Shown here: piece by piece, positions 9,001 through 25,315 of the stretch
Position numbering within the stretch: the stretch's first letter is position 1
Layout of the letters: each line of letters begins with the position of its first letter
Origin: Nitrospirales bacterium
Lineage (GTDB): Bacteria; Nitrospirota; Nitrospiria; Nitrospirales; UBA8639
Assembly: GCA_965221365.1 (NCBI GenBank)
Contig: OZ244884.1
Location: 773,493-837,492 of the forward strand
Length of the DNA stretch: 64,000 nucleotides
Direction: 5' to 3'
Notes under the pieces: generated by a model
What the model saw: only the letters and a program-made list of their open reading frames with translations
Told to the model about the DNA's origin: nothing
Databases searched by the model: none
Translations under genes and position numbers: made by a program

Positions 9001-12000
9001 GTGTACTCGGTGCCGTTGGTCAGGCCGGTGACCTCGTAACTGGTGGCGTCCTTCGCCAGGTCAACCCAGGGCTGGAAGTTCGCCGCGCTCTTCAGCTTGT
9101 AGGCCACCTGCATCCTGTCGATTTCGCTGGTGTTGGTGGGCAGGTCCCACGTCAGGCCGACCTTGCCGTCGCCGGGCGCCGCGGTCAGGTTGCCGGGGGC
9201 GTCGGGGATCGCCAGCTTCGGCGTCGCCGTCACCGCTGACGCCGCGCCCGGGCCGTCGGCGTTCACCGCGCGGATCTCGAAGGCGTGTTGCTTGCCGTTG
9301 GCCAGGCCGGTCACCGTGTGGCCGGTGGTGCCGGCATTGCTGCCGGCGATGTCGGTCCAAGGCTCGCTGTCGGGCACGCTGGCGCCTTCAATATAGCGGA
9401 CCTGGTACTTGGTGATGCTGTTGTCCCGCGCATGGGTCCACGTCAACGTCACTTGGGTGTCGCCCGCCGTCGCCGCCAGGTCGGCGGGCGCGGACGGCAC
9501 CTTGCCCGGCCCCGCCTCGGGCGTCGCGTCCACCTTCGCCTCGGCGCCGCGGCCCGCGCCGTTCAGCGCGCGCACGATGAAGTTGTACTCGGTGCCGTTG
9601 GTCAGGCCGGTGACGTCGTAGCTGGTGGCGTCTTTCGCCAGGTCGACCCAGGGCAGGTAGTTGGCCGCGCCCGACTCCCGGTAGGCCACCTGCATCTTGT
9701 CGATTTCGCTGGTGTTGGTGGGCAGGTCCCAGGTCAGGGCCACCGCGCCGTCGCCCGCGGCGGCGGTCAGGTTGCCGGGGGCGTCCGGGACCGCCAGCTT
9801 CGGCTGGGCGGCCACGGCCACCGAGTCGCTGCTGCCGGCGGTGTTGGTGGCGCGGACTTCGAACTCGTAGCTCACGCCGTTGTCAAGGCCGGTCTCGGTG
9901 TGGGTGGTGGCGTCCTTGGCCAGCAGGGTCCATTGGCTCCAACTCGTGTCCGTCTTCTTCTTGTGGCGCACGTCGATGGTGTCGACGGTGCCCTTGTCCG
10001 GCAGATCCCAGGTCAGGGTCACCTGGGTGTCACCGGCGCTGGCCTGCAGGTTGCTCGGGGCCGAAGGCTTCGCCAACTTCGGCGTGCCCTCGACGCTGGC
10101 CGACGGGCCCGTGCCCGCGGTGTTCACCGCGCGGACCTCGAACAGGTAGTCGGTGCCGTTGACCAGGCCTGTCACCCGGGACCGCTCGGCCGTGCCCGCC
10201 AGGGAGGTCCATGCGCTCCAGCCGGTGTCGGGGGCCGTCTTCACCTTGTGGCGCAGCTCGACGCTGTCGATCTGGCTGGTGTTCGTGGGCAGGGTCCACA
10301 GCACCACCACTTCGGTGTCGCCGGGCACCGTGCTCAGGTTGGTCGGCGCGCCAGGCGTCACCAGCGGGGGCGCCCGCGGCGTCGCCGCGCCGGTGGCCGG
10401 CTCGCCGTTGCCAGCCTTGTTGGTGGCGCGCACCTGGAAGGTGTAGCCGGTGCCGTTGGTCAGGCCGGTGACCTTGTGGCTGGTGGCCGCGGAGGACGGA
10501 AGGTCGGTCCAGGCGTCGCGGGCGTCGTCGAACGGCAGGTCCACCGTCGCCTTCCAGCGCACCTGCACGGTGACAATCTCGCTGGTGTTGGTGGGCAGCG
10601 TCCAGTTCAGGTCCACTTCGGCGTTGCCCGCCGTGGCGCTGAGCCCGGTCGGGGCGCCGGGGACCGCCAGCTCCGGCCTTCCGGCCGTCCGCGCCGCCGG
10701 GCCGGTGCCGGACGCGCTCTCCGCGCGCACTTCGAAGAGGTAGTCCTGGCCGTTCTTCAGGTTGGTCACGGTGTGCGTGGTCGCGTCTGCGGCCAGGTCC
10801 GTCCAGGGCTCCCAGGTGGTTTCGCCCCGGGCCTGGTGGCGCACCTGCACCTTGTCCAGCACGCTGGCGTTGGTGGGCAGGTCCCAGCTCAGGCTCACCG
10901 AGCGGTCGCCCGCGGTGGCCGTCAGGTTCTCCGGGGCGTCCGGGACCGCCACTTGCGGCGTCGCCTTGATCGCGTCGGAGGCGTCGCCCGGGAGGCTGCC
11001 GGCCACGGCGCGGATCTGGAAGGTGTACTCGGTGCCGTTGGTCAGGCCGGTCACGGTGTGGGTGATGGTGTCGGCGCCGCTGCCGGGAATGTCATCCCAC
11101 AGGTCGATCCCCGCGCTTTCAAAATCGAATATCTGGTACTTGGTGATGCTGTCGTCACCGGGGTCGGCCCAGATCAGGGTGACTTCCGTGTCGCCGGCTA
11201 CGGCGGTGAAGTTTCTGGGCTTGGCGGGCGGCTCCAGTTCCTTATAGATAGCGGTGACCGTGGTCGCGGCGGCGTTGTCGTTGCCGGCGGCGTCCTGGGC
11301 CACGCTCGCCGCCACGGCGACGCTGAACTCGCCCGCGGCCTTCGGCGTGATCTTCGCCGTGTAGACCGGCGCTGCCGGATCCGGCTGGGCGAAGTCCGAA
11401 GCGTCGGCGTTGGTCAATGTGATGTCGCCGGCCTCGAAGCCGGTGACGGACTCGCTGAAGGTGAAGGTGGCATCCACCGCTGCGTTGACCGTTCCGGAAA
11501 CGCCCGTGATGGCCACCGTCGGCACCGTGTTGTCCAGCTCGTACGTAATCTGATTGCCGCGGGGCGGGGTCCGGTCACGGAGCGTATTGCCAACGCAGTC
11601 CGTGACCTCCGCATGATTCAGCGTCAAGGTGGCCGTGCCGTTGTAGCCAGCCAATGCGCCGCCGGAAATGTTTACGACGTAGGGAGCGTAGACTCCGCAG
11701 GTATTCGGATCGTCGGCCCCCGGGGTCACGGTCAGCGTCGGCTCCTGCGTGATCGCCGGCACGAAGGTAACCGTATAGGCAGCCGCACTACCGGCCCCCG
11801 AATGGCGCATGCTTTCGTTGTATTGAACCGCCCACTGCACCGAATCCCGGTTGGTCGGCGACTTCGCGTCGGTGTTCCCGGTTTCGCTGTCGTAACGGTG
11901 AATTGAAGTTACGTGTGGCGGGGTCCTGTCCAGCAGGTAGGTGTCGTCGTTGGTCCCCGTCGGCGTGGTGTCGGTCAGCGCGTTGCCGGCGGTATCCTCG

Positions 12001-15000
12001 ATGTCCTGGCCTTGCACGAACTCCAGGTTCACCGTGCCGGCCAGCACCACCAAATTGCCACCGGCCACGTTCACGTCCCAGGTGGTGCCGTCCGTGCCGA
12101 CTGCCGTCGCCGTCTCCGTCCCGTCCGTACCCCGAACGTGGAAGTCATCGTCGGACACATTCACCACCGCCTCGCTGAACGTCACCCGCCAGGTCAAGGT
12201 CACCGCGTTGGTGGGCGAAGTTGGCGGATCATGTCGCACAATGCTCGCCACCCGCGGCGCTTGGGTGTCCGCAGTGACAGTGATGTTGAACGTGAGGCTG
12301 GCCGTGTCGCCGTCGGCGTCGGTGGCGGTGTAAGTGTAGGCTGTCGCGCTCTGGGCCGTGGTCGGAGTGCCCGTCAGGGTGCGGGCGGTGGCGTCGAAGG
12401 CCAGGCCCGCCGGGGCGGCCGGGGCCAAGCTGTAGGTCAGGGTGCCGTTGCCGCCGGTGGCCTCGGGCAGGTTCAAGGTGGCGATGGCGGCGTTCTGGGC
12501 GTAGGTCTGGTCGGCAATCGTGACGCCGGCGGCGAAGCTGGGCGCAGGATTGTACTGCGCGGTCACGGTAGTCGCCGCCGCATTGTCGTTGCCGGCGGCG
12601 TCTTGCGCCGCGCCCGCCGCAACGCCGACGCTGAACTCGCCCGCGTCCTTCGGCGTGATCTTCGCCGTGTAGACCGCTCCCGCCCCCGTGCCCGATTGGG
12701 CGAATTCCGTGGCGTCGGCGTTAGTCAGCGTGATGTCACCAAGCTCGAAGCCGGTGACCGGTTCGCTGAAGGTGAAGGTGGCATCCACCGCTGCGGTGAC
12801 TGTCCCGGAAACGCCCGTGATGGCCACTGTCGGCGCCACGTTGTCCACCACGAAGGTGTTGTCGTTGGTGCCGGTCGGCGTCCGGTCCCGGACCGCAACG
12901 CTGGCGCAGTTTCGGATAACCCCGTCCGACTTCAACGTCATCGTCACCGTGCCGTTGTAGTTGGCGAGGTCGCCGCCGTAAAGCTCGACGGAGAATGCCA
13001 GTCCCGCATCCCCGCGGATCCGGCATCTGCGGGCCGCGCCCAACCTGTTCGCGACCAGCGTCGGCGCGTTCGCGATCGGCGGGTCGTAGGCAACCTCGTA
13101 TGCCCCCGGTCCGCCGGCCTGCCCGTACAGCACCAGTTCGCTGAACACAACCTGCCACGTCAACGTGTCCGCGTTCGTCGGGGAGGTTGTTGGCATGTGC
13201 CGCGTGATGTCTTCCACGCCGGGCACCGTGCCCGTCGTCACGCTCACCTCGCTCGCCTCGCCGTTGCCGGCGGAGTTGGTGGCGCGCACTTGAAACCTGA
13301 ATTCGGTGCTTTCGGTCAGGTTATACGCGTCGAAGTACGTGCGCGTGGCAGGGAGATTGGTCCAAATGTCGGTGGTGTCATCAAACGGCAGGTCAGCCGT
13401 GGCCTTGTAGCGAACCTGGAGGTTGGTAAGCGAACTGGCGTTGGTCGGGTTGGTCCAGGACAGGGTGACCTGGTTGCCGCCGACGAAGGCGGTCAGGTTC
13501 GTCGGCGCGTCGGGGACGGCCAGTGCCGGTGTTGCGGTGACAGTGCTGGAGGCGTCGCTGTTGCCGTTGGCGTTGACGGCGCGGATTTCGAAAGCATATT
13601 GGGTGGCGTTGGTGAGGCCGGTGACCACGTGGCTGGTGGTCTGGTCGTCACTGGGGTCGATATCGTCCCAGGTGGCGGTGGCCGGCACGGTGGAACCCGC
13701 GCCGTAGCGGACCTGGTACTTGGTGATGCTGGTGTCGGACGGATCGGTCCAGTTCAGCGTGACCGTGGTGTCGCCCGCGGTGGCGGCCAGGCCGGTGGGC
13801 GCGGCGGGTGCCGGCGGCGCCTCGATGGTGATGTTGAACGTCAGGCTGGCCGTGTCGCCGTCCCCATCGGTCACCGTGTACGTGTATTCGGTGGCGGCCT
13901 GGGCGGTGGTCGGCGTGCCGGTGAGGGTGCGGGCGGTGGCATCAAACGTCAGGCCCGCCGGCGCCGTCGGCGTGAACGTGTACGTCAGCGGGGCGTCGCC
14001 GCCGGTGGCCTGCGGCAGGTCGAGCTGGGTAATCGCCGAGTTCTGCAGGTAGGTCTGGTCGGCAATGGTCTGGGTGCCGAAGTCCGGCAGGTTGTCCGCG
14101 GTAATCGTGATGTTGAACTTCAGCTCGGCCACATCCCCGTCGCCATCGGTCACCGTGTACGTGTATTCGGTGGCCCCCTGGGCGGTGGTCGGCGTGCCGG
14201 TGAGGGTACGGGCAGTGGCGTCAAACGTCAGGCCCGCCGGCGCCGTCGGCGTGAAGGTGTACGTCAGCGGGGCGTCGCCGCCGGTGGCCTGCGGCAGGTC
14301 GAGCTGGGTAATCGCCGAGTTCTGCAGGTAGGTCTGGTCGGGAATAGTCTGGGTGCCGAAGGTCGGTAGCGCGTTCGCGGTGACCGAGACCGTCGCCGTG
14401 AGGCCGGCGTAGTTGCCGCCGGCGGCGGTCAAGGTGAGGGTCGCATTACCGTCAGTCGGGCTCGCCGCCATGTTCACGGTGACCGTCTGCGCGGTGTTGT
14501 AGTTCGTGGCGGTGAACGTCAGCGACGTCGGGCTGACTGTCACGTCCGTGTCGTCGCTGGCCACGGTGACGGTGACCGAGGCGGTCGGGGCCGCGGCCAG
14601 GGTCACGTCAAAGGTGGCGCTGCCGCCCTCATCCACCTCCAAGGTGGCCGGTGAGACTTGGATGGCCGGATCCGGTCTGGGCGTGGCCGTGACCGTGTCC
14701 GAGTCCGGGCCGTTGGCCGTGCCGACCACGGCGCGGACCTGGAACGCATAGGTCGTGCCGTTGGTCAGGGTGTCAACGGTGTGGGTCGTGGTCGTCGCGC
14801 CGCTGCCGGTGATGTCCCCCCAGGTGGCGGTGGCGGGTACGGTGGACCCGGCGCCGTAGCGCACCTGGTACTTGGTAATGGTGCTGTCATTCGGGTTGGC
14901 CCAGGTCAGCGTGACCTCGGTGTCACCGGCCGTGGCGGTCAGGTTGGCCGGCTTGGCCGGGGCCTCGTCCACATCGGTGACCGTCACCGTGTAGGCGGCC

Positions 15001-18000
15001 GAGGTCACCGTGTTGGTGTTCGCATCCGTCGCCGTTAACGTGTACTCGTAGGTGTTGCTGGTGTCACTGTCGGTCGGGGACTCAAAGTCCCGCGCCGCCA
15101 AGCTCACCCGCGCCCCGGTCTGACTCTGGTTCGCCGCCGGCAGCGTAAACTCGCCCGCATCCGCCCCGCCCAGCGTCCAGGTGACCGCACCCAACGCGCC
15201 GACTAAGGTCGCATCAATGGTGTAGGCCTGGTTCTCGCTCACACTGGCATCGGCCAGGCCCGTGAGCGTCAGCGTTGCGGTCTCGTTGACATTGGTAATG
15301 GTGATGGACACGCCGACGGTGGCGCTGTTGCTGTCATCGTCGGTGGCCGTGAGCGTGTACTCGTAAATATTGTCGGTATTGTTGTCCGTCGGGACCTCGA
15401 AGTCCTTCGCCGTCAGGGTCACGGTGGCGCCGGTGTTGGTCGCGTTCGACAGCACAAACCCGTTCGCGTTGGCGTCGTCACCGGTCAGGGACCAGGTGAT
15501 GTTGCCCACCGGCGTGCCAGTCAGGGTCGCATTGCCGGTGTAGGCCGCATTCTCGGCTTGGTCGGCATCGGCCACATCGCCGATGGTCAGGGTGGCCGCG
15601 ACGCGGATGTCAAACGTCAGCGTGACCGGATCCCCGTCCGCATCGGTTGCGGTGTACGTGTACTCCGTCGCCGCCTGAGGCACGGTCGGGGTGCCGGTGA
15701 TCTCCCGACTGCTCGCGCTGAACGCCAGGCCCGCGGGCAGCACCGGACTCAGGCTGTACGTCAGTGTCCCGTCACCGCCGGTGGCTTGGGGCAGGTTCAG
15801 CGTGGTGATGGCTGTGCCCTGGGTATAGGTCTGGTCGGGAATGGTCTGGGTGCCGAAGCTCGGCAGCGCATTCGCTGTGACCGCGACCGTGGCCGTGAGG
15901 CCGGCGTAGTTGCCGCCGGCGGCGGTCAAGGTGAGGGTCGCAGTGCCGTCGGTCGGGCTCGCCGCCATGTTCACGGTGACCGTCTGCGCGGTACTGTAGT
16001 TCGTGGCAGTGAATGTCAGCGGAGTCGGGCTGACTGTCACGTCCGTGTCGTCACTGGCCACGGTGACGGTGACCGAGGCGGTCGGGGCCGCGGCCAGGGT
16101 CACGTCAAAGGTGTTGCTGCCGCCCTCATCCACCTCCAGGGTGGCCGGTGCGACTTGGATGGCCGGGTCCGGTCTGGGGGTGGCCGTGGCCGTGGCTGCA
16201 GCGCCGTTGCCGGCGGTGTTGCTGGCCCGCACGGCAAAGGTGTAGCCCGTGCCGTTGGTCAGGCTCGTGGCCGTGTAGGTCGTGACGGTGGGGGCCAGAT
16301 TGGTCCACGTATCGGTGGTGTCATCAAACGGCAGGTCAGCCGTGGCCTTGTAGCGGACCTGGAGGTTGTCAATCGTGCTGGCGTTGGTCGGGTTGGTCCA
16401 GTTCAGCGTGACCGTGGTGTCGCCCGCGGTTGCAGTCAGGTTGGTGGGCGCGTCAGGGATAGGCAAGGTCGGGGTGGCGGTGGTCGTGGCGGCCGTACCG
16501 TCCCCGGCAGTGTTGCTGGCGCGCACCTCGAAGGTGTAGCCCGTGCCGTTGGTCAGGCCGGTCGCCGTGGTGGTCGTGGCCGTGACGGCAAGATCGGTCC
16601 AGGTGTCGGTGGCGACGAACGGCAGATTGGCGGTGGCCTTCCAGCGCACCTGGACCTTGTCAATCGTGCTGGCGTTGGTGGGCAGCGTCCAAGCCAGTGT
16701 CACCGTGGTGTCACCCGCCGTGGCGCTCAGCCCCGTCGGCGCGGCCGGAACGGCCAGCGCCGGCGTCACCGTGACCTCGTCCGACTCGGCCCCCTCGCCC
16801 TGCTCGTGGACCCCGCGCACCTTGAAGGTGTAGGTGGTGCCGTTGGTCAGCCCTGTCACGTCCTTGCCGGAAATCGACAAGGAAGCGCTGTCGGCGATGT
16901 CGGTCCAGGCGAGAGAGGTGCCGTCATCGCCAGTGTAGGTGTACTGCCACTTCAGGATCGCCGGCCCACGCTGCACCACCGTGGCCGCCAGCGTCACCTT
17001 CGCATCCCCGGCGGTTGCGGTGAAGCTGGACGGTTTCTCAAGCAGGTAGAGCGGCCTGCCGCTCAGACCATCACTGAGGTGACCGACCCATTCATCGCAG
17101 GCGAAGGAATGGACGAGCACACGGGCATCGTAAGTCGTGTCATCAAGCGTGACGGCAATCTCGTTGGGATTGTTAGTATTAATCGGGGTTTGCTGGTTGA
17201 TGGTGAAGCGCTTGTTGGTAACGCCATTACCAAGATTCTCAACAACTTCAAAGCTTCCGCTGTTGACGTCGTTATTGATAAGGGGGTTACCTTGCCAAGC
17301 GTCACCAGTCTTCTTGTATTGGACTAAGTAGCGCTCGACTGCACAAGAATTGCCCTTGCTCCAGCTCCAGACCACGTCGAGGTCGGTATCGTTGGTGCCC
17401 GGCCCCACGCTGACTATTGTTGGAGCGGGCGGCACCTCGTTGATTGACGGCACCTCCCACACCGTGTCCGAGGCATCGCTCTCACCGCCGGCATTTACCG
17501 CGCGGATCTGGAATGCGTATAGGAAGCCGTTGGTCAGGTTGTCAACGGTGTGGGTCGTGGTCGAGGCGCCGCTGGACGGGATATCCGCCCAGGACACGCT
17601 GTCCGGAATGTCCACAACGTTAACATCGTAGCGCACCTGGTACTTGGTGATGCTGGCGTTTTGCGGGTCTGTCCACGACAGTGTCACTTCGGCTTCGCCC
17701 GCTGCGGTGGTCAGGCCGGTGGGCGCGTTCGGGATCGGCGGCAATGGCGTGGCCGTGGTCGTGACGGCCGTCCCGTCCCCGGCAGTGTTGCTGGCGCGCA
17801 CGGCAAAGGTGTAGCCCGTGCCATTGGTCAGGCCCGTCGCCGTAGTGGTCGTGGCCGTGCCGGCAAGGTCGGTCCAGGTGTCGGCAGCGACGAACGGCAG
17901 ATTGGCGGTCGCCTTCCAGCGCACCTGCACCTTGTCAATCTCACTGGCGTTGGTCGGCAGCGTCCAGGCCAGGGTGGCCTCGGTGTCACCCGCCGTGGCG

Positions 18001-19964
18001 CTCAGCCCCGTCGGCGCGTTCGGGATCGGCAGCACCGGCGTCGCCGTGGTCGTGGCGGCCGTCCCGTCCCCGGCGGTGTTGCTGGCCCGCACGGCAAAGG
18101 TGTAGCCCGTACCATTGGTCAGGCCCGTCGCCGTAGTGGTCGTGGCCGTGCCGGCAAGGTCGGTCCAGGTGTCAGCAGCGACGAACGGCAGATTGGCGGT
18201 GGCCTTCCAGCGCACCTGCACCTTGTCAATCTCACTGGCGTTGGTCGGCAGCGTCCAAGCCAGGGTGGCCTCGGTGTCACCCGCCGTGGCGCTCAGTCCC
18301 GTCGGCGGGTCCGGGATCGGCAGCACCGGCGTCGCCGTGGTCGTGGCGGCCGTCCCGTCCCCGGCGGTGTTGCTGGCCCGCACGGCAAAGGTGTAGCCCG
18401 TACCATTGGTCAGGCCCGTCGCCGTAGTGGTCGTGGCCGTGCCGGCAAGGTCGGTCCAGGTGTCAGCGGCGACGAACGGCAGATTGGCGGTGGCCTTCCA
18501 GCGCACCTGCACCTTGTCAATCTCACTGGCGTTGGTCGGCAGCGTCCAGGCCAGGGTGGCCTCGGTGTCACCCGCCGTGGCGCTCAGTCCCGTCGGCGGG
18601 TCCGGGATCGGCAGCACCGGCGTCGCCGTGGTCGTGGCGGCCGTCCCGTCCCCGGCAGTGTTGCTGGCGCGCACGGCAAAGGTGTAGCCCGTGCCATTGG
18701 TCAGGCCCGTCGCCATAGTGGTCGTGGCCGTGCCGGCAAGGTCGGTCCAGGTGTCGGCAGCGACGAACGGCAGATTGGCGGTCGCCTTCCAGCGCACCTG
18801 CACCTTGTCAATCTCACTGGCGTTGGTCGGCAGCGTCCAGGCCAGGGTGGCCTCGGTGTCACCCGCCGTGGCGCTCAGCCCCGTCGGCGCGTTCGGGATC
18901 GGCAGCACCGGCGTCGCCGTGGTCGTGGCGGCCGTCCCGTCCCCGGCGGTGTTGCTGGCCCGCACGGCAAAGGTGTAGCCCGTACCATTGGTCAGGCCCG
19001 TCGCCGTAGTGGTCGTGGCCGTGCCGGCAAGGTCGGTCCAGGTGTCAGCAGCGACGAACGGCAGATTGGCGGTGGCCTTCCAGCGCACCTGCACCTTGTC
19101 AATCTCACTGGCGTTGGTCGGCAGCGTCCAGGCCAGGGTGGCCTCGGTGTCACCCGCCGTGGCGCTCAGCCCCGTCGGCGCGTTCGGGATCGGCAGCACC
19201 GGCGTCGCCGTGGTCGTGGCTGCCGTCCCGTCCCCGGCAGTGTTGCTGGCGCGCACGGCAAAGGTGTAGCCCGTGCCATTGGTCAGGCCCGTCGCCATAG
19301 TGGTCGTGGCCGTGCCGGCAAGGTCGGTCCAGGTGTCGGCAGCGACGAACGGCAGATTGGCGGTGGCCTTCCAGCGCACCTGCACCTTGTCAATCTCACT
19401 GGCGTTGGTCGGCAGCGTCCAGGTCAGGGTGGCCTCGGTGTCACCGGCCGTGGCGCTCAGCCCCGTCGGCGCGTTCGGGATCGCCAGCGTCGGGGTGGCC
19501 GTGGCAAGGGCATGGATGCTGTTGCCGACGCTATTGGTGGCGCGCACCTCGAAGGTGTAGGCCGTGCTGTTGGTCAGGCCCTCCACCGTGTGGCTCGTGG
19601 TCGTAGCGTTGCTGCCCGGAACGTCAGGCCAGTGCTGATTCAACGCACCAGCTTGGTAGCGAAACTGGTACTTGGTGATGGTGCTGTCACCCGGGTCGTT
19701 CCAGGTCAGGGTCACCTTAGTGTCGCCAGCAGTCGCAACGAAATTCGCCGGCTTGGCCGGCACGGATTGCGCCAGCAGCGACTGGGGGCTGAGTAGCACC
19801 AGGGCGAAGCCCAAGACCGGCCAGACCCATTGCAGGGGTCCATGCAGACTCAGGCAGCCTCGCCCGCCGCGCGTGCGAGATGGGGATTCTACGCCCGCCT
19901 TCATGGCAGCCGGGTTACCCCCCCCCCCGCTGATGCGATGGGGAAAATGTCCATTTCTACTCAT
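1..19964 (-). CDS. Giant secreted repeat-rich surface protein, 5' portion only (>=6,654 codons in window; 3' end lies left of position 1)
   Basis: ATG at 19964 (in-frame TGA 8 codons upstream; second in-frame ATG at 19904). No track ORF lies in this minus frame (top coordinate = 2 mod 3), as expected if it reaches the window edge without a stop. Hand translation at 19964-19500, 17459-17041, 15410-15276, 7778-7320, 1052-540 and 59-1 is stop-free. It reads as a signal peptide (..WVWPVLGFALVLLSPQSLLA/QS), then FN3-like units (AGDxxVTLxW..P....I.KYQ/VR........W.D.....T.HTVTGLTNGTxYxFxVRA.N..G), He_PIG-type Ig units (LP.ATGG.G.LTYSL.P..PAGL.FD...RTLTGTP....AT.YTYT.TD.DGD) and cadherin-like units (AKDFEVPTDNNTDNIYEYTLTATDDDSNSATVGVSITITNVNE). 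The long + strand track ORFs (e.g. 2847-7700) are its codon-aligned antisense. Confidence 0.85.
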   Translation of the reverse strand, partial: MSRNGHFPHRISGGGGNPAAMKAGVESPSRTRGGRGCLSLHGPLQWVWPVLGFALVLLSPQSLLAQSVPAKPANFVATAGDTKVTLTWNDPGDSTITKYQFRYQAGALNQHWPDVPGSNATTTSHTVEGLTNSTAYTFEVRATNSVGNSIHALATATPTLAIPNAPTGLSATAGDTEATLTWTLPTNASEIDKVQVRWKATANLPFVAADTWTDLAGTATTTMATGLTNGTGYTFAVRASNTAGDGTAATTTATPVLPIPNAPTGLSATAGDTEATLAWTLPTNASEIDKVQVRWKATANLPFVAADTWTDLAGTATTTTATGLTNGTGYTFAVRASNTAGDGTAATTTATPVLPIPNAPTGLSATAGDTEATLAWTLPTNASEIDKVQVRWKATANLPFVAADTWTDLAGTATTTMATGLTNGTGYTFAVRASNTAGDGTAATTTATPVLPIPDPPTGLSATAGDTEATLAWTLPTNASEIDKVQVRWKATANLPFVAADTWTDLAGTATTTTATGLTNGTGYTFAVRASNTAGDGTAATTTATPVLPIPDPPTGLSATAGDTEATLAWTLPTNASEIDKVQVRWKATANLPFVAADTWTDLAGTATTTTATGLTNGTGYTFAVRASNTAGDGTAATTTATPVLPIPNAPTGLSATAGDTEATLAWTLPTNASEIDKVQVRWKATANLPFVAADTWTDLAGTATTTTATGLTNGTGYTFAVRASNTAGDGTAVTTTATPLPPIPNAPTGLTTAAGEAEVTLSWTDPQNASITKYQVRYDVNVVDIPDSVSWADIPSSGASTTTHTVDNLTNGFLYAFQIRAVNAGGESDASDTVWEVPSINEVPPAPTIVSVGPGTNDTDLDVVWSWSKGNSCAVERYLVQYKKTGDAWQGNPLINNDVNSGSFEVVENLGNGVTNKRFTINQQTPINTNNPNEIAVTLDDTTYDARVLVHSFACDEWVGHLSDGLSGRPLYLLEKPSSFTATAGDAKVTLAATVVQRGPAILKWQYTYTGDDGTSLAWTDIADSASLSISGKDVTGLTNGTTYTFKVRGVHEQGEGAESDEVTVTPALAVPAAPTGLSATAGDTTVTLAWTLPTNASTIDKVQVRWKATANLPFVATDTWTDLAVTATTTTATGLTNGTGYTFEVRASNTAGDGTAATTTATPTLPIPDAPTNLTATAGDTTVTLNWTNPTNASTIDNLQVRYKATADLPFDDTTDTWTNLAPTVTTYTATSLTNGTGYTFAVRASNTAGNGAAATATATPRPDPAIQVAPATLEVDEGGSNTFDVTLAAAPTASVTVTVASDDTDVTVSPTPLTFTATNYSTAQTVTVNMAASPTDGTATLTLTAAGGNYAGLTATVAVTANALPSFGTQTIPDQTYTQGTAITTLNLPQATGGDGTLTYSLSPVLPAGLAFSASSREITGTPTVPQAATEYTYTATDADGDPVTLTFDIRVAATLTIGDVADADQAENAAYTGNATLTGTPVGNITWSLTGDDANANGFVLSNATNTGATVTLTAKDFEVPTDNNTDNIYEYTLTATDDDSNSATVGVSITITNVNETATLTLTGLADASVSENQAYTIDATLVGALGAVTWTLGGADAGEFTLPAANQSQTGARVSLAARDFESPTDSDTSNTYEYTLTATDANTNTVTSAAYTVTVTDVDEAPAKPANLTATAGDTEVTLTWANPNDSTITKYQVRYGAGSTVPATATWGDITGSGATTTTHTVDTLTNGTTYAFQVRAVVGTANGPDSDTVTATPRPDPAIQVSPATLEVDEGGSATFDVTLAAAPTASVTVTVASDDTDVTVSPTSLTFTATNYNTAQTVTVNMAASPTDGNATLTLTAAGGNYAGLTATVSVTANALPTFGTQTIPDQTYLQNSAITQLDLPQATGGDAPLTYTFTPTAPAGLTFDATARTLTGTPTTAQGATEYTYTVTDGDGDVAELKFNITITADNLPDFGTQTIADQTYLQNSAITQLDLPQATGGDAPLTYTFTPTAPAGLTFDATARTLTGTPTTAQAATEYTYTVTDGDGDTASLTFNITIEAPPAPAAPTGLAATAGDTTVTLNWTDPSDTSITKYQVRYGAGSTVPATATWDDIDPSDDQTTSHVVTGLTNATQYAFEIRAVNANGNSDASSTVTATPALAVPDAPTNLTAFVGGNQVTLSWTNPTNASSLTNLQVRYKATADLPFDDTTDIWTNLPATRTYFDAYNLTESTEFRFQVRATNSAGNGEASEVSVTTGTVPGVEDITRHMPTTSPTNADTLTWQVVFSELVLYGQAGGPGAYEVAYDPPIANAPTLVANRLGAARRCRIRGDAGLAFSVELYGGDLANYNGTVTMTLKSDGVIRNCASVAVRDRTPTGTNDNTFVVDNVAPTVAITGVSGTVTAAVDATFTFSEPVTGFELGDITLTNADATEFAQSGTGAGAVYTAKITPKDAGEFSVGVAAGAAQDAAGNDNAAATTVTAQYNPAPSFAAGVTIADQTYAQNAAIATLNLPEATGGNGTLTYSLAPAAPAGLAFDATARTLTGTPTTAQSATAYTYTATDADGDTASLTFNITVTADTQAPRVASIVRHDPPTSPTNAVTLTWRVTFSEAVVNVSDDDFHVRGTDGTETATAVGTDGTTWDVNVAGGNLVVLAGTVNLEFVQGQDIEDTAGNALTDTTPTGTNDDTYLLDRTPPHVTSIHRYDSETGNTDAKSPTNRDSVQWAVQYNESMRHSGAGSAAAYTVTFVPAITQEPTLTVTPGADDPNTCGVYAPYVVNISGGALAGYNGTATLTLNHAEVTDCVGNTLRDRTPPRGNQITYELDNTVPTVAITGVSGTVNAAVDATFTFSESVTGFEAGDITLTNADASDFAQPDPAAPVYTAKITPKAAGEFSVAVAASVAQDAAGNDNAAATTVTAIYKELEPPAKPRNFTAVAGDTEVTLIWADPGDDSITKYQIFDFESAGIDLWDDIPGSGADTITHTVTGLTNGTEYTFQIRAVAGSLPGDASDAIKATPQVAVPDAPENLTATAGDRSVSLSWDLPTNASVLDKVQVRHQARGETTWEPWTDLAADATTHTVTNLKNGQDYLFEVRAESASGTGPAARTAGRPELAVPGAPTGLSATAGNAEVDLNWTLPTNTSEIVTVQVRWKATVDLPFDDARDAWTDLPSSAATSHKVTGLTNGTGYTFQVRATNKAGNGEPATGAATPRAPPLVTPGAPTNLSTVPGDTEVVVLWTLPTNTSQIDSVELRHKVKTAPDTGWSAWTSLAGTAERSRVTGLVNGTDYLFEVRAVNTAGTGPSASVEGTPKLAKPSAPSNLQASAGDTQVTLTWDLPDKGTVDTIDVRHKKKTDTSWSQWTLLAKDATTHTETGLDNGVSYEFEVRATNTAGSSDSVAVAAQPKLAVPDAPGNLTAAAGDGAVALTWDLPTNTSEIDKMQVAYRESGAANYLPWVDLAKDATSYDVTGLTNGTEYNFIVRALNGAGRGAEAKVDATPEAGPGKVPSAPADLAATAGDTQVTLTWTHARDNSITKYQVRYIEGASVPDSEPWTDIAGSNAGTTGHTVTGLANGKQHAFEIRAVNADGPGAASAVTATPKLAIPDAPGNLTAAPGDGKVGLTWDLPTNTSEIDRMQVAYKLKSAANFQPWVDLAKDATSYEVTGLTNGTEYTFIVRALNGAGRGAVAEVDATPVAVPTAPTGLAAAPGDTQVVLSWTLPTNSGALTKVQARHKADTAKQWQAWVDLAANATTHTVTGLTNGELYNFEVRAENASGPGAAASVSATPVPPLVAPGAPTKLSAVPGDTEVVVLWTLPTNTRQIDSVELRHKVKMAPDTGWSQWTSLAGTAERSRVTGLVNGTDYLFEVRAVNAAGTGPSASVEGTPQLAKPSAPSNLQASAGDTQVTLTWDLPDKGTVDTIDVRHKKKTDTAWSLWTLLAKDATTHTETGLDNGVTYEFEVRASNLAGSSDSVAVAAQPKLAVPEAPTSLTATAGNAQVELSWTLPTNASVIGAVQVRWKATADLPFTASDAWTDLAGTATAYTATGLTNGTGYTFEVRATNTAGDGPAATVAATPMAPPTQARTLTYTFSDNGSTVTIAASGSLDASSFNFDRVGVPADLSRIRMNDTEIWGIHPPNSIPIKRYDSLPDFVTTGETSYGGTSELENMVNYSSSYYIRFSTYSKYLEMDSANFTGDIYQIANGAATFDGTLQSTLGDNDFDIEFAIGNQKIVFQTANPATVPNAPTGLAATAGNAQVDLAWTNPNDSNITRYQVRYGAGSTVPTTANWEDITGSGAGTTSHTVSGLTNETEYAFEIRAVNARGNSAASDTATATPEADTTPSFGTETIADQNYTRNTAIATLTLPEATGGNGTLTYSLTPNAPAGLNFDATNRTLTGTPTATQNATAYTYTVTDADGDTASLTFNIAVAPPNNPPVVDKAIPDAELNEGKSGTVDLSAVFSDPDKDPLTFSAVSSDTTQVTVAVNGSTLTYTSVSAGKPTVTVTADDGRGGTVSTTFTVTVHGLPNDPPIVAKEIEDLTLSVGESRDVDVSLVFNDPDKDPLTYTASSDDTSKATVTVKDATVTVVGVAAGTSTVTVTADDNKAGTVDDEFVVTVEADVAPSFGTETIADQTYTQNTAIATLNLPEATGGNRTLTYSLTPNAPAGLNFDATNRTLTGTPTATQNATAYTYTATDADGDAVSLTFNIAVAPPNNPPVVDKAIPDAELNEGKSGTVDLSAVFSDPDKDPLTFSAVSSDTTQVTVAVNGSTLTYTSVSAGKPTVTVTADDGRGGTVSTTFTVTVHGLPNDPPIVAKEIEDLTLSVGETRDVDVSLVFNDPDKDPLTYTASSDDTSKATVTVKDATVTVVGVAAGTSTVTVTADDNKAGTVDDEFVVTVEADVAPSFGTETIADQTYTQNTAIATLTLPEATGGNGTLTYSLSPNAPAGLNFDATNRTLTGTPSAVQDATQYTYTVTDADGDTASLTFNITIAKAVEPPAKPRNFTAVAGDTEVTLIWADPGDDSITKYQIFDFESAGIDLWDDIPGSGADTITHTVTGLTNGTEYTFQIRAVAGSLPGDASDAIKATPQVAVPDAPENLTATAGDRSVSLSWDLPTNASVLDKVQVRHQARGETTWEPWTDLAADATTHTVTNLKNGQDYLFEVRAESASGAGPAARTAGRPELAVPGAPTGLSATAGNAEVDLNWTLPTNTSEIVTVQVRWKATVDLPFDDARDKWTDLPSADATSHKVTGLTNGTGYTFQVRATNTAGNGEPATGAATPRAPPLVTPGAPTNLSTVPGDTEVVVLWTLPTNTSQIDSVELRHKVKTDPDTGWSQWTSLAGTAERSRVTGLVNGTDYLFEVRAVNTAGTGPSASVEGTPELAKPSAPSNLQANAGDTTVTLTWDLPDKGTVDTIDVRHKKRADTSWSQWTLLAKDATTHTETGLDNGVPYEFEVRASNTAGSSDSVAVAAQPKLAIPDAPGNLTASAGDGAVALTWDLPTNTSEIDKMQVAYRESGAANYLPWVDLAKDATSYDVTGLTNGTEYNFIVRALNGAGRGAEAKVDATPEAGPGKVPSAPADLTVTVGDTKVTLAWTQSRDSSITKYQFRYAEGASVPGTESWTDIAGSGAGTTGHEVTGLTNDTLHAFEVRAVNADGAGAASAVTATPQVAVPDAPDNLTATAGDRSVSLSWDLPTNASVLDKVQVRHQARGETTWEPWTDLAADATTHTVANLKNGQDYLFEVRAESASGTGPAARTAGRPELAVPSAPADLAATAGDTQVTLTWTHARDNSITKYQVRYIEGASVPDSEPWTDIAGSNAGTTGHTVTGLTNGKQHAFEVRAVNADGAGAASAVTATPKLAIPDAPGNLTAAPGDGKVGLTWDLPTNTSEIDRMQVAYKLKSAANFQPWVDLAKDATSHEVTGLTNGSEYTFIVRALNGAGRGAVAEVDSTPVAVPTAPTGLAAAPGDTQVVLSWTLPTNSGVLTKVQARHKADTAKDWEAWVDLAANATTHTVTGLTNGELYNFEVRAENASGPGAAASVSATPVPPLVAPGAPTKLSTVPGDTEVVVLWTLPTNTRQIDSVELRHKVKMAPDTGWSQWTSLAGTAERSRVTGLVNGTDYLFEVRAVNTAGTGPSASVEGTPQLAKPSAPSNLQASAGDTTVTLTWDLPDKGAVDTIDVRHKKKTDTSWSQWTLLAKDATTSTVTSLDNGVTYEFEVRASNLAGSSDSVAVAAQPKLAVPDAPTSLTATGGNTQVELSWTLPTNASVIGAVQVRWKATADLPFTASDAWTDLAGTATAYTATGLTNGTGYTFAVRATNTAGNGEAATAAATPMAPSTPARTLTFTFSDDGSTVTIAGSGSLDVSGFGNPSNTTLRLGSGIEGIQFNDSARWQIHPPNLDSTPVSRFSSLPNITTTGLNTYSGTSQYESPSNYNRDFTFWLGTFYGELEIDQANLTGNTYDLTGKNVTFSGTLLSTLGDNDFHIELAIGNQKIIFKATPPPPVPAAPANLAAAPGDTEVTLSWNNPNDSSITKYQLRQAQGATVPGSTAWADITGSGAGTTSHTVTGLTNGQQYAFQIRAVNNAGNSDASDTVTATPRVDTDPSFGTETIADQNYTRNTAIATLTLPEATGGNGTLTYSLSPNAPAGLNFDATNRTLTGTPSAVQDATQYTYTATD
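543..1007 (-). other. Unrecognised ~155-aa module inside the giant protein, copy 1 (visibly lower GC than flanking FN3 units)
   Basis: Hand translation: TLTFTFSDDGSTVTIAGSGSLDVSGFGNPSNTTLRLGSGIEGIQFNDSARWQIHPPNLDSTPVSRFSSLPNITTTGLNTYSGTSQYESPSNYNRDFTFWLGTFYGELEIDQANLTGNTYDLTGKNVTFSGTLLSTLGDNDFHIELAIGNQKIIFKA. It matches no motif I recognise. Confidence 0.7.
1000..5045 (-). repeat. Segmental duplication copy A (block of about 14 FN3 units)
   Basis: Track ORFs recur in copy B at constant offsets: 1402/8164, 1675/8437, 2368/9130 (offset 6762) and 3220/9409, 3691/9880, 3964/10153, 4261/10450, 4573/10762 (offset 6189). Copy A has 573 extra bp. This equals the distance between two copies of TCGGCGGGCGCGGACGG at 2719-2735 and 3292-3308. 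Confidence 0.85.
5100..6780 (-). repeat. Two tandem copies of an 840-bp block (one He_PIG-like unit plus two Ig/cadherin-like units)
   Basis: Track ORF pairs 5299/6139, 5506/6346 and 5713/6553 are all offset by 840 bp. The first pair is identical and the second differs by one residue. A third partial He_PIG-like copy follows at about 6780-6990, and another lies at the window start (1-210). Confidence 0.85.
7320..7769 (-). other. Unrecognised ~150-aa module inside the giant protein, copy 2
   Basis: Hand translation: TLTYTFSDNGSTVTIAASGSLDASSFNFDRVGVPADLSRIRMNDTEIWGIHPPNSIPIKRYDSLPDFVTTGETSYGGTSELENMVNYSSSYYIRFSTYSKYLEMDSANFTGDIYQIANGAATFDGTLQSTLGDNDFDIEFAIGNQKIVFQ. The ends are conserved with copy 1 and the centre has diverged. 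Confidence 0.7.
7760..11235 (-). repeat. Segmental duplication copy B (block of about 12 FN3 units)
   Basis: See copy A. Translations of 4573.. and 10762.. are identical over 158 codons (about 474 bp). Similarity ends at about 5045/11235, where the flanks diverge. Confidence 0.85.
13790..14350 (-). repeat. Two tandem 279-bp He_PIG-like units
   Basis: Track ORFs 13720-14052 and 14065-14331 end 279 bp apart and share a near-identical 70-residue C-terminal translation. Confidence 0.8.
14340..14690 (-). repeat. Dispersed duplicate of an Ig-like module (partner at about 15840-16190)
   Basis: Track ORFs 14506-14751 and 16003-16245 (offset 1497 bp) share nearly identical translations over about 60 residues. 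Confidence 0.75.
15840..16190 (-). repeat. Dispersed duplicate of an Ig-like module (partner at about 14340-14690)
   Basis: See partner feature. Confidence 0.75.
17815..19560 (-). repeat. Six tandem 291-bp (97-codon) near-identical FN3 units
   Basis: Out-of-frame track ORFs end at 18105, 18396, 18687, 18978, 19269 and 19560 (constant 291-bp spacing). Translations of 18115-18396 and 18406-18687 are identical. 17818-18105 and 18691-18978 differ by one residue, which suggests an 873-bp (3-unit) higher-order repeat. Confidence 0.9.
19918..19928 (-). repeat. G11 homopolymer (C11 on + strand) in the 5' end of the giant gene
   Basis: Read directly: ..gggttaCCCCCCCCCCCgctgatg.. on + strand. Sense-strand position is +37..+47 relative to ATG 19964 and -24..-14 relative to ATG 19904. 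Confidence 0.9.
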
Positions 19965-20030
19965 ATTGTGAACTCTTTTGCCCAGTCACAGCGTTGCTCT
20001 CGTTGCTCAGTCGCCCTCCTAGTCCACACC

Positions 20031-20083
20031 AACGCATTTGCGTTATATTTTCGTTGAAAATATGCACACTTAGCTGAAAATAT
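20031..20083. promoter_or_regulatory. Candidate regulator-binding sites in the AT-rich region upstream of the giant gene
   Basis: Perfect 14-bp palindrome AACGCATTTGCGTT (20031-20044). Two copies of TGAAAATAT lie 20 bp apart (20055-20063, 20075-20083). I could not assign a convincing -35/-10 pair. Confidence 0.3.
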
Positions 20084-20330
20084 CACTTTTACCAACCTTA
20101 GGGCAAGTCCTTAGGAAAAAATTCTTCAGGAACAATTGATGACATTTTTTGGGCCTCCTGCCTCAACGTGTGCTCGCCCACGGGGGCTGTTGCCCTCCCA
20201 GCGGACGCCCATCTCGCTTGTGGCGGACAGACAGCCGCGTCTGCCGTACGCCATCGGATGCCATAGACGTGTCAGGATCTACGGCCATGGGTGACGGTGG
20301 GACGCGCGGTGCTTGGCAACCGTCTGGCCC

Positions 20331-23529: not shown

Positions 23530-25315
23530 TGATTCGTCATTCCTGCGCATGCCCCCTTCCGTCGAACACGCACACACCACCAATCGTCATCCCCGACGTT
23601 TTTAATCGGGGATCCAGGGCTTTTTCTCTTTCCTTTGTTTCCTGGATGCCGGATCGGGGTCCGGCATGACGGTTGGGGGGGATGCCATGTCGAGTCCGGC
23701 ATGACGGTTGTGGGGCCTTTGCGTCCTTCCCCGACGCGCCCCATTCGTCGCACACGCACCTTCTTCGTCATTCCTGCGAAGACCTCCATTCGTCATCCGC
23801 ACGCGCTCCAATCGTCATTCCCGCGAAGACCACCAATCGTCATCCCCGTGAAGACCACCATTCGTCATCCGCACGCGCTCCAATCGTCATTCCCGCGAAA
23901 GCGGGAATCCAGGGTCGTTGCCTTTCCTTTTTTCTGGATGCCGGATCGGGGTCCGGCATGACGGAGGGGGGGGGGATGCCATGTCGAGTCCGGCATGACG
24001 TTGAGGGGGATGCCCGTCGCAACCGCACACACCACCAATCGTCATCCCCGACGTTTGTAATCGGGAATCCAGAGTCGTTGCCTTTCCTTTTTTCTGGATG
24101 CCGGATCAAGTCCGGCATGACGGTGGGGGGGGGATGCCATGTCGAGTCCGGCATGACGTTGAGGGGGATGCCCGTCGCAACCGCACACACCACCAATCGT
24201 CATCCCCGACGTTTGTAATCGGGAATCCAGAGTCGTTGCCTTTCCTTTTTTCTGGATGCCGGATCAAGTCCGGCATGACGGTGGGGGGGGGATGCCATGT
24301 CGAGTCCGGCATGACGTTGGGGGCCTTTGCGTCATTCCCCCACGCGCCCCATCCGTCGCACACGCGCCTTCTTCGTCATTCCTGCGAAGACCTCCATTCG
24401 TCATCCGCACGCGCTCCAATCGTCATTCCCGCGAAAGCGGGAATCCAGGGCCGTTGCTTTTTCCTTTTTTTCTGGATGCCGGATCAAGTCCGGCATGACG
24501 GAGGGGGGGGGGATGCCATGTCGAGTCCGGCATGACGTTGGGGGCCTTTGCGTCCTTCCCCGACGCGCCCCTTCCTTCGCACACACACCTTCTTCGTCAT
24601 TCCTGCGAAGACCTCCATTCGTCATCCGCACGCGCTCCAATCGTCATTCCCGCGAAAGCGGGAATCCAGGGTCGTTGCCTTTCCTTTTTTCTGGATGCCG
24701 GATCGGAGTCCGGCATGACGAAGGGGGGGATGCCCGTCGCACCCGCACACACCACCAATCGTCATTCCCGCGAAAGCGGGAATCCAGGGTTGTTGCTTTT
24801 CCTTTTTTCTGGATGCCGGATCGAGTCCGGCATGACGGAGGGGGGCCTGTGGTTTTTCTGGATGCCGGATCGGGGTCCGGCATGACGGAGGGGGCCTGTG
24901 GTTTTTCTGGATGCCGGATCGGGGTCCGGCATGACGGAGGGGCCTGTGCGTCATTCCCCGACGCGCCCCATTCGTCGCACACGCACCTTCTTCGTCATTC
25001 CTGCGAAGACCTCCATTCGTCATCCGCACGCGCTCCAATCGTCATTCCTGCGAAGACCACCATTCGTCATCCCCGACGTTTGTAATCGGGGATCCAGGGT
25101 CGTTGCCTTTTCCTTTCTTTCTGGATGCCGGATCGGAGTCCGGCATGACGGTGGGGGCCTGTGGTTTTTCTGGATGCCGGATCGGGGTCCGGCATGACGG
25201 AGGGGGGGATGCCATGTCAGAGCCCGGCATGACGGAGAGGGACGCGAGGTCAAGGCCCGACATGACGGTGGGGACGGCATGGCGAATGAAGGGCATGACG
25301 AAGAGAGGGCGTAAC
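23530..25315. repeat. Array 1 (1.8 kb) of the modular nested-palindrome repeat family, between divergent trmI and nfeD-like genes
   Basis: Dozens of modules in these forms:
- CGTCAT-TCCCGCGAAAGCGGGA-ATCCAGG
- CGTCAT-CCCCGACGTTTGTAATCGGGG-ATCCAGG
- pyrimidine-rich spacer (e.g. GTCGTTGCCTTTCCTTTTTT)
- CTGGAT-GCCGGATCGGGGTCCGGC-ATGACGG
- GATGCCATGTCGAGTCCGGC-ATGACG. Confidence 0.9.
24036..24351. repeat. 158-bp tandem duplication of a composite repeat unit inside array 1
   Basis: CAATCGTCATCCCCGACGTTTGTAATCGGGAATCCAGAGTCGTTGCC.. starts at both 24036 and 24194. About 135 bp are identical in the two copies, each including a G9 run. Confidence 0.85.

Follow-up and report, generated by a model that had tools for sequence, protein, structure and literature searches.

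Introduction

The 64,000-nucleotide stretch of DNA analysed here (hereafter the window; contig OZ244884.1 of the Nitrospirales bacterium assembly GCA_965221365.1, positions 773,493 to 837,492 of the forward strand) carries on its minus strand the 5' half of a giant autotransporter gene, and a run of eleven G residues (G11) lies between two candidate start codons of this gene. The locus raises the question of whether the run is a phase-variation switch, i.e., whether gain or loss of a single G changes the output of a surface protein, or a fixed part of the leader that tolerates the homopolymer. We consider it about an even chance (probability roughly 0.5) that G11 is a slippage-prone contingency tract in a translated leader, possibly a leaky one.

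The G11 tract lies between two candidate in-frame start codons

The run appears as C11 on the plus strand (ttaCCCCCCCCCCCgctg) and as G11 on the strand of the gene, at window positions 19918-19928. On the minus strand, the segment reads ATG (19964) AGT AGA AAT GGA CAT TTT CCC CAT CGC ATC AGC GGG GGG GGG GGT AAC CCG GCT GCC ATG (19904) AAG. The run begins 36 nt past the first ATG (ATG-19964; 19962-19964), ahead of the signal peptide, and is read from there as four glycine codons (GGG GGG GGG GGT, Gly-Gly-Gly-Gly). The second ATG (ATG-19904; 19902-19904) lies 13 nt past the run and is in the same frame as the first because 60 nt separate them. The original prediction had given this tract, both ATGs, the four-codon reading and a position of the run at -24 to -14 relative to ATG-19904, and all of these were correct when checked against the sequence.

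An in-frame TGA eight codons upstream of ATG-19964 closes the reading frame, indicating that ATG-19964 is the first possible ATG, GTG or TTG start. The gene caller used on a second contig of the locus in ENA picked the same codon. The leader peptides NGHFPHR and ISGGGGNPAAMK would be specific to a start at 19964, and the N-terminus from a start at 19904 would be MKAGVESPSR. From ATG-19904, a signal peptide of 45 amino acids (aa; 19770-19904, minus strand) was read by eye, with a positively charged n-region, a hydrophobic core WVWPVLGFALVLL and a likely cleavage site at LLA/QS; the conventional layout that had been proposed for this start (MKAGVESPSRTRGGRG...WVWPVLGFALVLLSPQSLLA/QS) was thereby borne out. 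The AT-rich region upstream of the gene on the minus strand (19965-20150) is the presumed promoter and 5' untranslated region (UTR). It contains the palindrome AACGCATTTGCGTT at 20031-20044, and the best sigma-70-like match upstream that we found by eye, TTGCCC-18-TATTTT with TG upstream, was below the scan threshold. An Rfam search of the run and the upstream region matched no family.

The gene is a single open frame of 12,893 aa (38.7 kb; C1:754775-793456, where C1 is the contig) and the largest gene of the genome (G000), which consists of one contig of 2,189,132 bp with 57.9% G+C; the gene alone makes up 1.8% of it. The window holds positions 1-19964 of the minus-strand frame, open to the window start, and the remainder lies outside. 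The last 500 residues matched the autotransporter beta-domain PF03797 (E 1.9e-9, 38.1 bits versus a cut-off of 26), which was the only match to a C-terminal domain of this type in the whole genome, and the protein ends in ...NMRLPF with phenylalanine as the final residue. At least 26 fn3 stretches and seven He_PIG stretches were found within the first 5000 residues. From its sequence, the product is predicted to be a type Va (classical) autotransporter, with a beta-barrel translocator, an N-terminal hydrophobic segment and a passenger in one polypeptide. It is likewise predicted to be surface-exposed, given the signal peptide, the FN3/He_PIG passenger and the beta-domain.

A change of one G would close the leader frame

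We simulated the reading frame from ATG-19964 at different tract lengths. With G8, G11 or G14, the frame is open into the signal peptide. With G9 or G12, it stops at a TAA directly 3' of the run (19915-19917, minus strand), and with G10 or G13 it stops at a TGA (19903-19901, minus strand) that overlaps ATG-19904 as ATGA in the -1 frame. That is, one shifted frame gives an upstream open reading frame (ORF) of 20 codons that ends on the ATGA overlap, and the other gives an upstream ORF of 15-16 codons that ends 10 nt before ATG-19904.

We hypothesized that slipped-strand mispairing at replication would add or remove one G in a fraction of cells. At G11 (also at G8 or G14), the frame of ATG-19964 would continue through the signal peptide into the adhesin-like protein. 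At the shifted lengths, the leader ORF would stop early and the protein would be made only via initiation or re-initiation at ATG-19904; the output of the gene would then be off or lowered in a subpopulation. We infer that length changes occur at a useful rate, that translation begins at ATG-19964 and that expression is altered.

In both shifted frames the leader ORF ends on the second ATG or shortly ahead of it, which would permit re-initiation, and the tract could act as a dimmer instead of a strict on/off switch. In an extended form of this idea, the tract would be a three-state translational dimmer that sets three heritable adhesin levels, as one example of a lineage-wide and as yet unpublished deployment of G/C contingency tracts in sponge-associated Nitrospirales. 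The in-frame state would yield adhesin with a 65-aa extended leader from ATG-19964, the ATGA overlap would feed coupled re-initiation at ATG-19904, and in the TAA frame the short ORF would end those 10 nt ahead of the second start. We regard this extended form as improbable.

Long G/C runs ahead of envelope-protein genes in the genus

Runs of at least 11 G or C residues were present in 36 of the 38 genus genomes (370 in total, up to 48 in one genome), and the longest run among the loci that we fetched was 41 nt. Autotransporter C-terminal matches were found in all 38 genomes, ranging from one in the present genome to 38, with open frames of up to ~36,000 aa. The number of runs correlated with the number of these matches (Spearman 0.45, p 0.005), with the qualification that kin genomes are not independent.

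All 50 runs of one relative (G016; OY843588.1) were fetched. Seventeen of them lay 0-200 nt ahead of an ORF's hydrophobic N-terminal segment, counting ORFs of at least 300 codons, compared with 2.05% of random positions in the present genome (binomial p ~1e-16, a value inflated by paralogy). These 17 runs head autotransporters, lipoproteins and a membrane-protein family, and all 17 are poly-C on the sense strand. Among 22 loci of that layout in relatives, 11 lacked any ATG, GTG or TTG from the run to the hydrophobic segment, and in eight of these none of the upstream starts was in frame at the length assembled; the remaining 11 also have a start past the run, like the giant gene. Because no start codon follows them, many of the relatives' runs must be translated.

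One relative's locus (L139) has the same layout as the giant gene, namely an ATG, 19 nt, C13, 18 nt and then an ATG with a signal peptide. In a G016 leader family (ARILRRSGWNPYRWFN), the run is C13, C15, C14 and C15 in four paralogs, and a 42-nt indel among these paralogs preserves the frame, an argument for translation of the leader. In two further G016 paralogs (L180 and L184), the run lies just upstream of GGAG and a start codon and is non-coding there; beside the translated leaders, these two indicate that coding and non-coding placements both exist. The relatives' runs resemble G11 in the succession of start codon, short leader, run and signal peptide, in the class of gene and in lineage.

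G016, a sister species, has at least 25 autotransporter genes, many of them in head-to-tail arrays with stop-free frames reaching the maximum given above (up to ~36,000 aa). Poly-C runs of 13-18 nt occur there in short gaps before the next gene (e.g., C1:1045046-1046119, 1153944-1155026 and 2962543-2963619 of that genome). Another G016 region (L198-L200; G016:C1:2379200-2395600) encodes four multi-pass membrane proteins that are paralogs (YLPWLI.LGWLTAV.WFLCDDA.IGFRYVRNL) and an additional membrane protein (L200). Five poly-C runs (C11-C14) occur there, ahead of the proteins' first membrane segments, and for three of them no upstream start is in frame.

Other long G runs in the genome

Counts of G/C runs in the present genome dropped approximately 5-fold with every base added, as far as length 8 (2962, 586, 122 and 20). 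By extrapolation, ~0.17 runs of at least 11 were expected, and three were observed (11, 13 and 14), all of which sit in secreted-protein genes. The other two belong to paralogous lipoprotein genes with a lipobox LTIAGC and Pro-Thr repeats, for which a Pfam search matched no family. One carries G13 in frame (C1:62499-62511; RITVEGGGGVTSVGG). In the second, the ORF is split at G14 (C1:588701-588714): its upstream portion reaches a stop 33 codons past the run, and the rest lies in another frame. A third paralog (~C1:1151700) has an interrupted GGGGAGGGGG at the homologous place, in frame. The 5' flanks of the first two paralogs are near-identical. The occurrence of G13, G14 and GGGGAGGGGG at one homologous site indicates that G runs in this genome have lengthened or shortened and are able to disrupt an ORF, and the lipoprotein paralogs look like stronger phase-variation candidates than the G11 tract.

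The pentamer TAACC follows all three runs directly on the 3' side (window 19912-19928, C1:62499 and C1:588701), and its frequency is 2e-4 per position. The motif G8+TAACC was absent from the 37 other genus genomes. One clear effect of TAACC is a TAA stop right after the run in one shifted frame. A common origin of the G(n)TAACC tracts was considered and found unsupported, the flanks being unlike beyond TAACC.

Further G runs were observed elsewhere in the genome. A Sel1-repeat gene (C1:1586446-1587546) has a G run at the GRGG site of each repeat, with G7 (1587140) and G9 (1587247) where G8 is in frame; these are compensating -1/+1 shifts that leave 36 codons out of register, and they reflect either real slippage or consensus error. 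In the window at 23966-24512, four G9-G10 runs occur at the same junction (catgacgg-Gn-atgcc) within hairpin-repeat arrays, and this junction recurs with G10 at C1:1512464.

Reproducibility of the tract and orthologous loci

The tract length was compared among assemblies. ENA assembly ERZ26695579 (contig ctg112945, 6.8x) was 100% identical over 10,840 bp and also had G11, and the G13 and G14 runs were reproduced in ERZ26695579 (6.8x) and ERZ25067264 (2x). The flanks of the three long runs showed 0-2 base differences over 10-14 kb in the other assemblies. Since all run lengths were reproduced, they are not polishing noise, and the polishing artefact that the original prediction had named as a refutation was not borne out. 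When further assemblies were sought via exact neighbour proteins, only ERZ26695579:ctg112945 carried the locus. A strain variant of the HD-GYP neighbour was found (ERZ25072258), and its contig ends 46 nt past the HD-GYP gene, before the giant gene.

Counterparts of the 5' end were also sought. The first 70 residues had no significant match in the 37 other genus genomes, the first 110 residues had none among candidates of 138-437 aa, the 5' DNA of the gene was not conserved in 60 relatives, and exact flank patterns found no match in the genome and metagenome contig collections. Sister species share the gene order trmI-like, REC, HD-GYP, rhodanese and small lipoprotein, and this synteny ends exactly upstream of the giant gene (window 19965-20330; L224 and L225). 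No autotransporter was present at the syntenic site past the small lipoprotein in the sister species. Taken with the synteny break, this indicates that the giant gene is a lineage-specific island. The G+C content of the gene is ~68%, versus a genome average of 58%.

Evidence that weighs against a switch

Several observations weigh against reading G11 as a contingency tract. First, ATG-19904 lies past the tract and gives a normal signal peptide alone; therefore, a frameshift need not silence the gene, and the switch could be leaky or without effect. The Shine-Dalgarno (SD) sequence of ATG-19964 is weak (AGAG, 8 nt upstream, with a predicted anti-SD duplex of -2.4 kcal/mol). Second, the relatives differ from the giant gene: their 5' runs are mostly sense-strand poly-C of 13-18 nt, in many paralogs and many of them out of frame, whereas in the present genome the run of the sole autotransporter is shorter, poly-G and in frame, and G11 is short beside the 13-41 nt of the relatives.

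Third, the chance of the tract rises if it is coding. GGG accounts for 29% of glycine codons, and the 29 glycine runs of at least four residues in 905 long ORFs would be expected to give G11 or longer ~0.7 times, and two do. As a coding tract, G11 from four glycine codons is therefore not very improbable. Fourth, MutS and MutL are intact in this genome, as they are in Neisseria. Finally, no length variation was found between the two records of the locus, both of which have G11 and are 100% identical; however, the matching assemblies represent the same clone and therefore say little about variability. No ortholog of the 5' end was found in the 37 genus genomes or the contig collections searched.

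The original prediction had likened the locus to the contingency loci that switch surface adhesins. The layout, the tract length within the proven range and the physical possibility of both proposed mechanisms uphold this likeness, the lipoprotein paralogs and the runs of the genus relatives add support from context, and the identical tract in the only other record of the locus counts against it.

Alternative explanations

We weighed three alternatives. In the first, the leader is fixed and does not switch; ATG-19904 is the start codon, and the 5' UTR contains the run, which is SD-like, structural or just tolerated and whose length would seldom change or do so to little effect. This main rival is doubtful, though it deserves serious weight. 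It accounts well for the conventional signal peptide from ATG-19904 and for the identical consensus in two assemblies. In addition, the G run is predicted to form a duplex of -11.6 kcal/mol with the canonical anti-SD of this genome's 16S rRNA, a strong pairing, and a predicted RNA fold has it base-paired to a CCCC segment located downstream, around ATG-19904 (z = -2.0). The non-coding runs of L180 and L184 in G016, upstream of GGAG and a start, provide a precedent. However, the run ends 13 nt from ATG-19904, beyond the usual SD spacing. Moreover, with a fixed leader, the in-frame upstream ATG would be a coincidence, and so would the position of the stop, at ATG-19904 or beside it, in each shifted frame. 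A fixed leader also does not fit the many runs of relatives that must be translated for want of a start codon past them.

In the second alternative, the tract is a transcriptional switch. In Bordetella pertussis fim2 and fim3, a C-stretch in the promoter lies between the activator site and the -10 element, and its length tunes expression. By analogy, G11 would act as a spacer, with a -35 or activator site on one side and a -10 element (TAACCC) on the other, tract length would set promoter strength, and a near-leaderless transcript would begin at ATG-19904. TAACCC does follow the run, with ATG-19904 7 nt further, which is the right distance for a leaderless start, and the runs of several relatives are followed by TAnnnT-like hexamers or GAAAAT. 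However, TAACCC does not end in the conserved T, the sequence 17-18 nt upstream (CATCGC or CCATCG) bears no likeness to TTGACA, a promoter scan around the run found no promoter-like site on the gene's strand, and the AT-rich region 60-190 nt upstream is the likelier promoter. This alternative is therefore very unlikely, and a promoter-spacer switch of the Bordetella fim or Neisseria porA/opc type was rejected, as the run does not lie between a recognisable -35 or activator site and a -10 element, CATCGC and TAACCC being poor matches. The earlier suggestion that, with a start at 19904, length changes would alter spacing was not supported. The distance from the 3' end of the run to this ATG stays at 13 nt at any length; a different spacing would therefore count only if a promoter were involved, and the run is not flanked by a convincing -35/-10 pair.

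The third alternative, that the tract length is wrong through a long-read homopolymer consensus error and the in-frame state is uninformative, is scarcely credible: the contig names (ctg..._6.82x_l), which suggest a long-read metagenome assembler, the compensating G7/G9 frameshifts of the Sel1-repeat gene and the frameshifted G14 paralog speak for it, but G11, G13 and G14 were all reproduced exactly in other assemblies (ERZ26695579 and ERZ25067264).

Implications of a possible contingency tract in a probable symbiont

The reading of G11 as a contingency tract is plausible and fits a lineage-wide pattern. Contingency loci are textbook devices of host-adapted pathogens. The relatives of the neighbouring gyrB-like gene were all Nitrospirales metagenome-assembled genomes (MAGs), many of them from sponge or coral samples by isolate name. 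Judged by this sampling, the host bacterium is probably a host-associated symbiont, and, by what is known of the Nitrospirales, presumably nitrite-oxidising. If the reading is correct, a contingency tract heads the largest gene of such a symbiont, and beneficial or commensal invertebrate symbionts would diversify their surface stochastically, perhaps evading host phagocytosis, phages or grazing. It would also explain why giant genes often look 'broken' in MAGs, as relatives carry up to 38 autotransporter genes with scattered runs. For annotation, a frameshift at a long G/C run in such a MAG is best neither labelled a pseudogene nor 'corrected' before the reads have been inspected.

Comparison with known switches

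The genes nalP and mspA (AusI) of Neisseria meningitidis contain coding poly-C tracts of 6-15 and 6-14 residues, respectively, and nalP is phase ON at 7, 10 or 13, as confirmed by immunoblots (PMC3723659). The original prediction had known of no such report for a gene of this kind, which is wrong for autotransporters in general. For giant adhesins of Nitrospirales or of sponge symbionts, the lack of an earlier report may still stand; in the literature searched, we found no work that deals with phase variation of sponge symbionts or of Nitrospira autotransporters. The giant gene resembles nalP and mspA in that all are type Va autotransporter genes with a homopolymer of similar length in the coding region (for the giant gene, as read from ATG-19964), of which every third length is in frame, with a surface or secreted product and intact mismatch repair. 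In contrast, the giant gene has poly-G instead of poly-C, placed before the signal peptide, and a second in-frame ATG past the run. NalP has roughly 1,000 residues, and the giant gene is ~12 times larger; its host is an uncultured member of the Nitrospirales with relatives sampled from sponges and corals.

Neisseria pilC has a tract of G9-20 within the reading frame (PMC5953494). By this comparison, G11 is within the length range of proven phase-variable tracts (nalP C6-15, pilC G9-20). The giant gene shares with pilC a sense-strand poly-G tract at the extreme 5' end, an exported adhesion-related protein and a frameshift that would fall ahead of the mature protein. Jonsson et al. reportedly placed the pilC tract in the part encoding the signal peptide in 1991. 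The protein family is different, and pilC is not known to have a bypass start past its tract.

The fim genes of Bordetella resemble the locus in that a G/C homopolymer (11-15 nt) immediately precedes a gene for a surface structure. They differ in that an activator site and a -10 element flank the fim stretch, whereas no such elements flank G11. Among the documented systems, NalP and MspA are the closest, and G11 is plausibly a further case of the design known from NalP/MspA and pilC.

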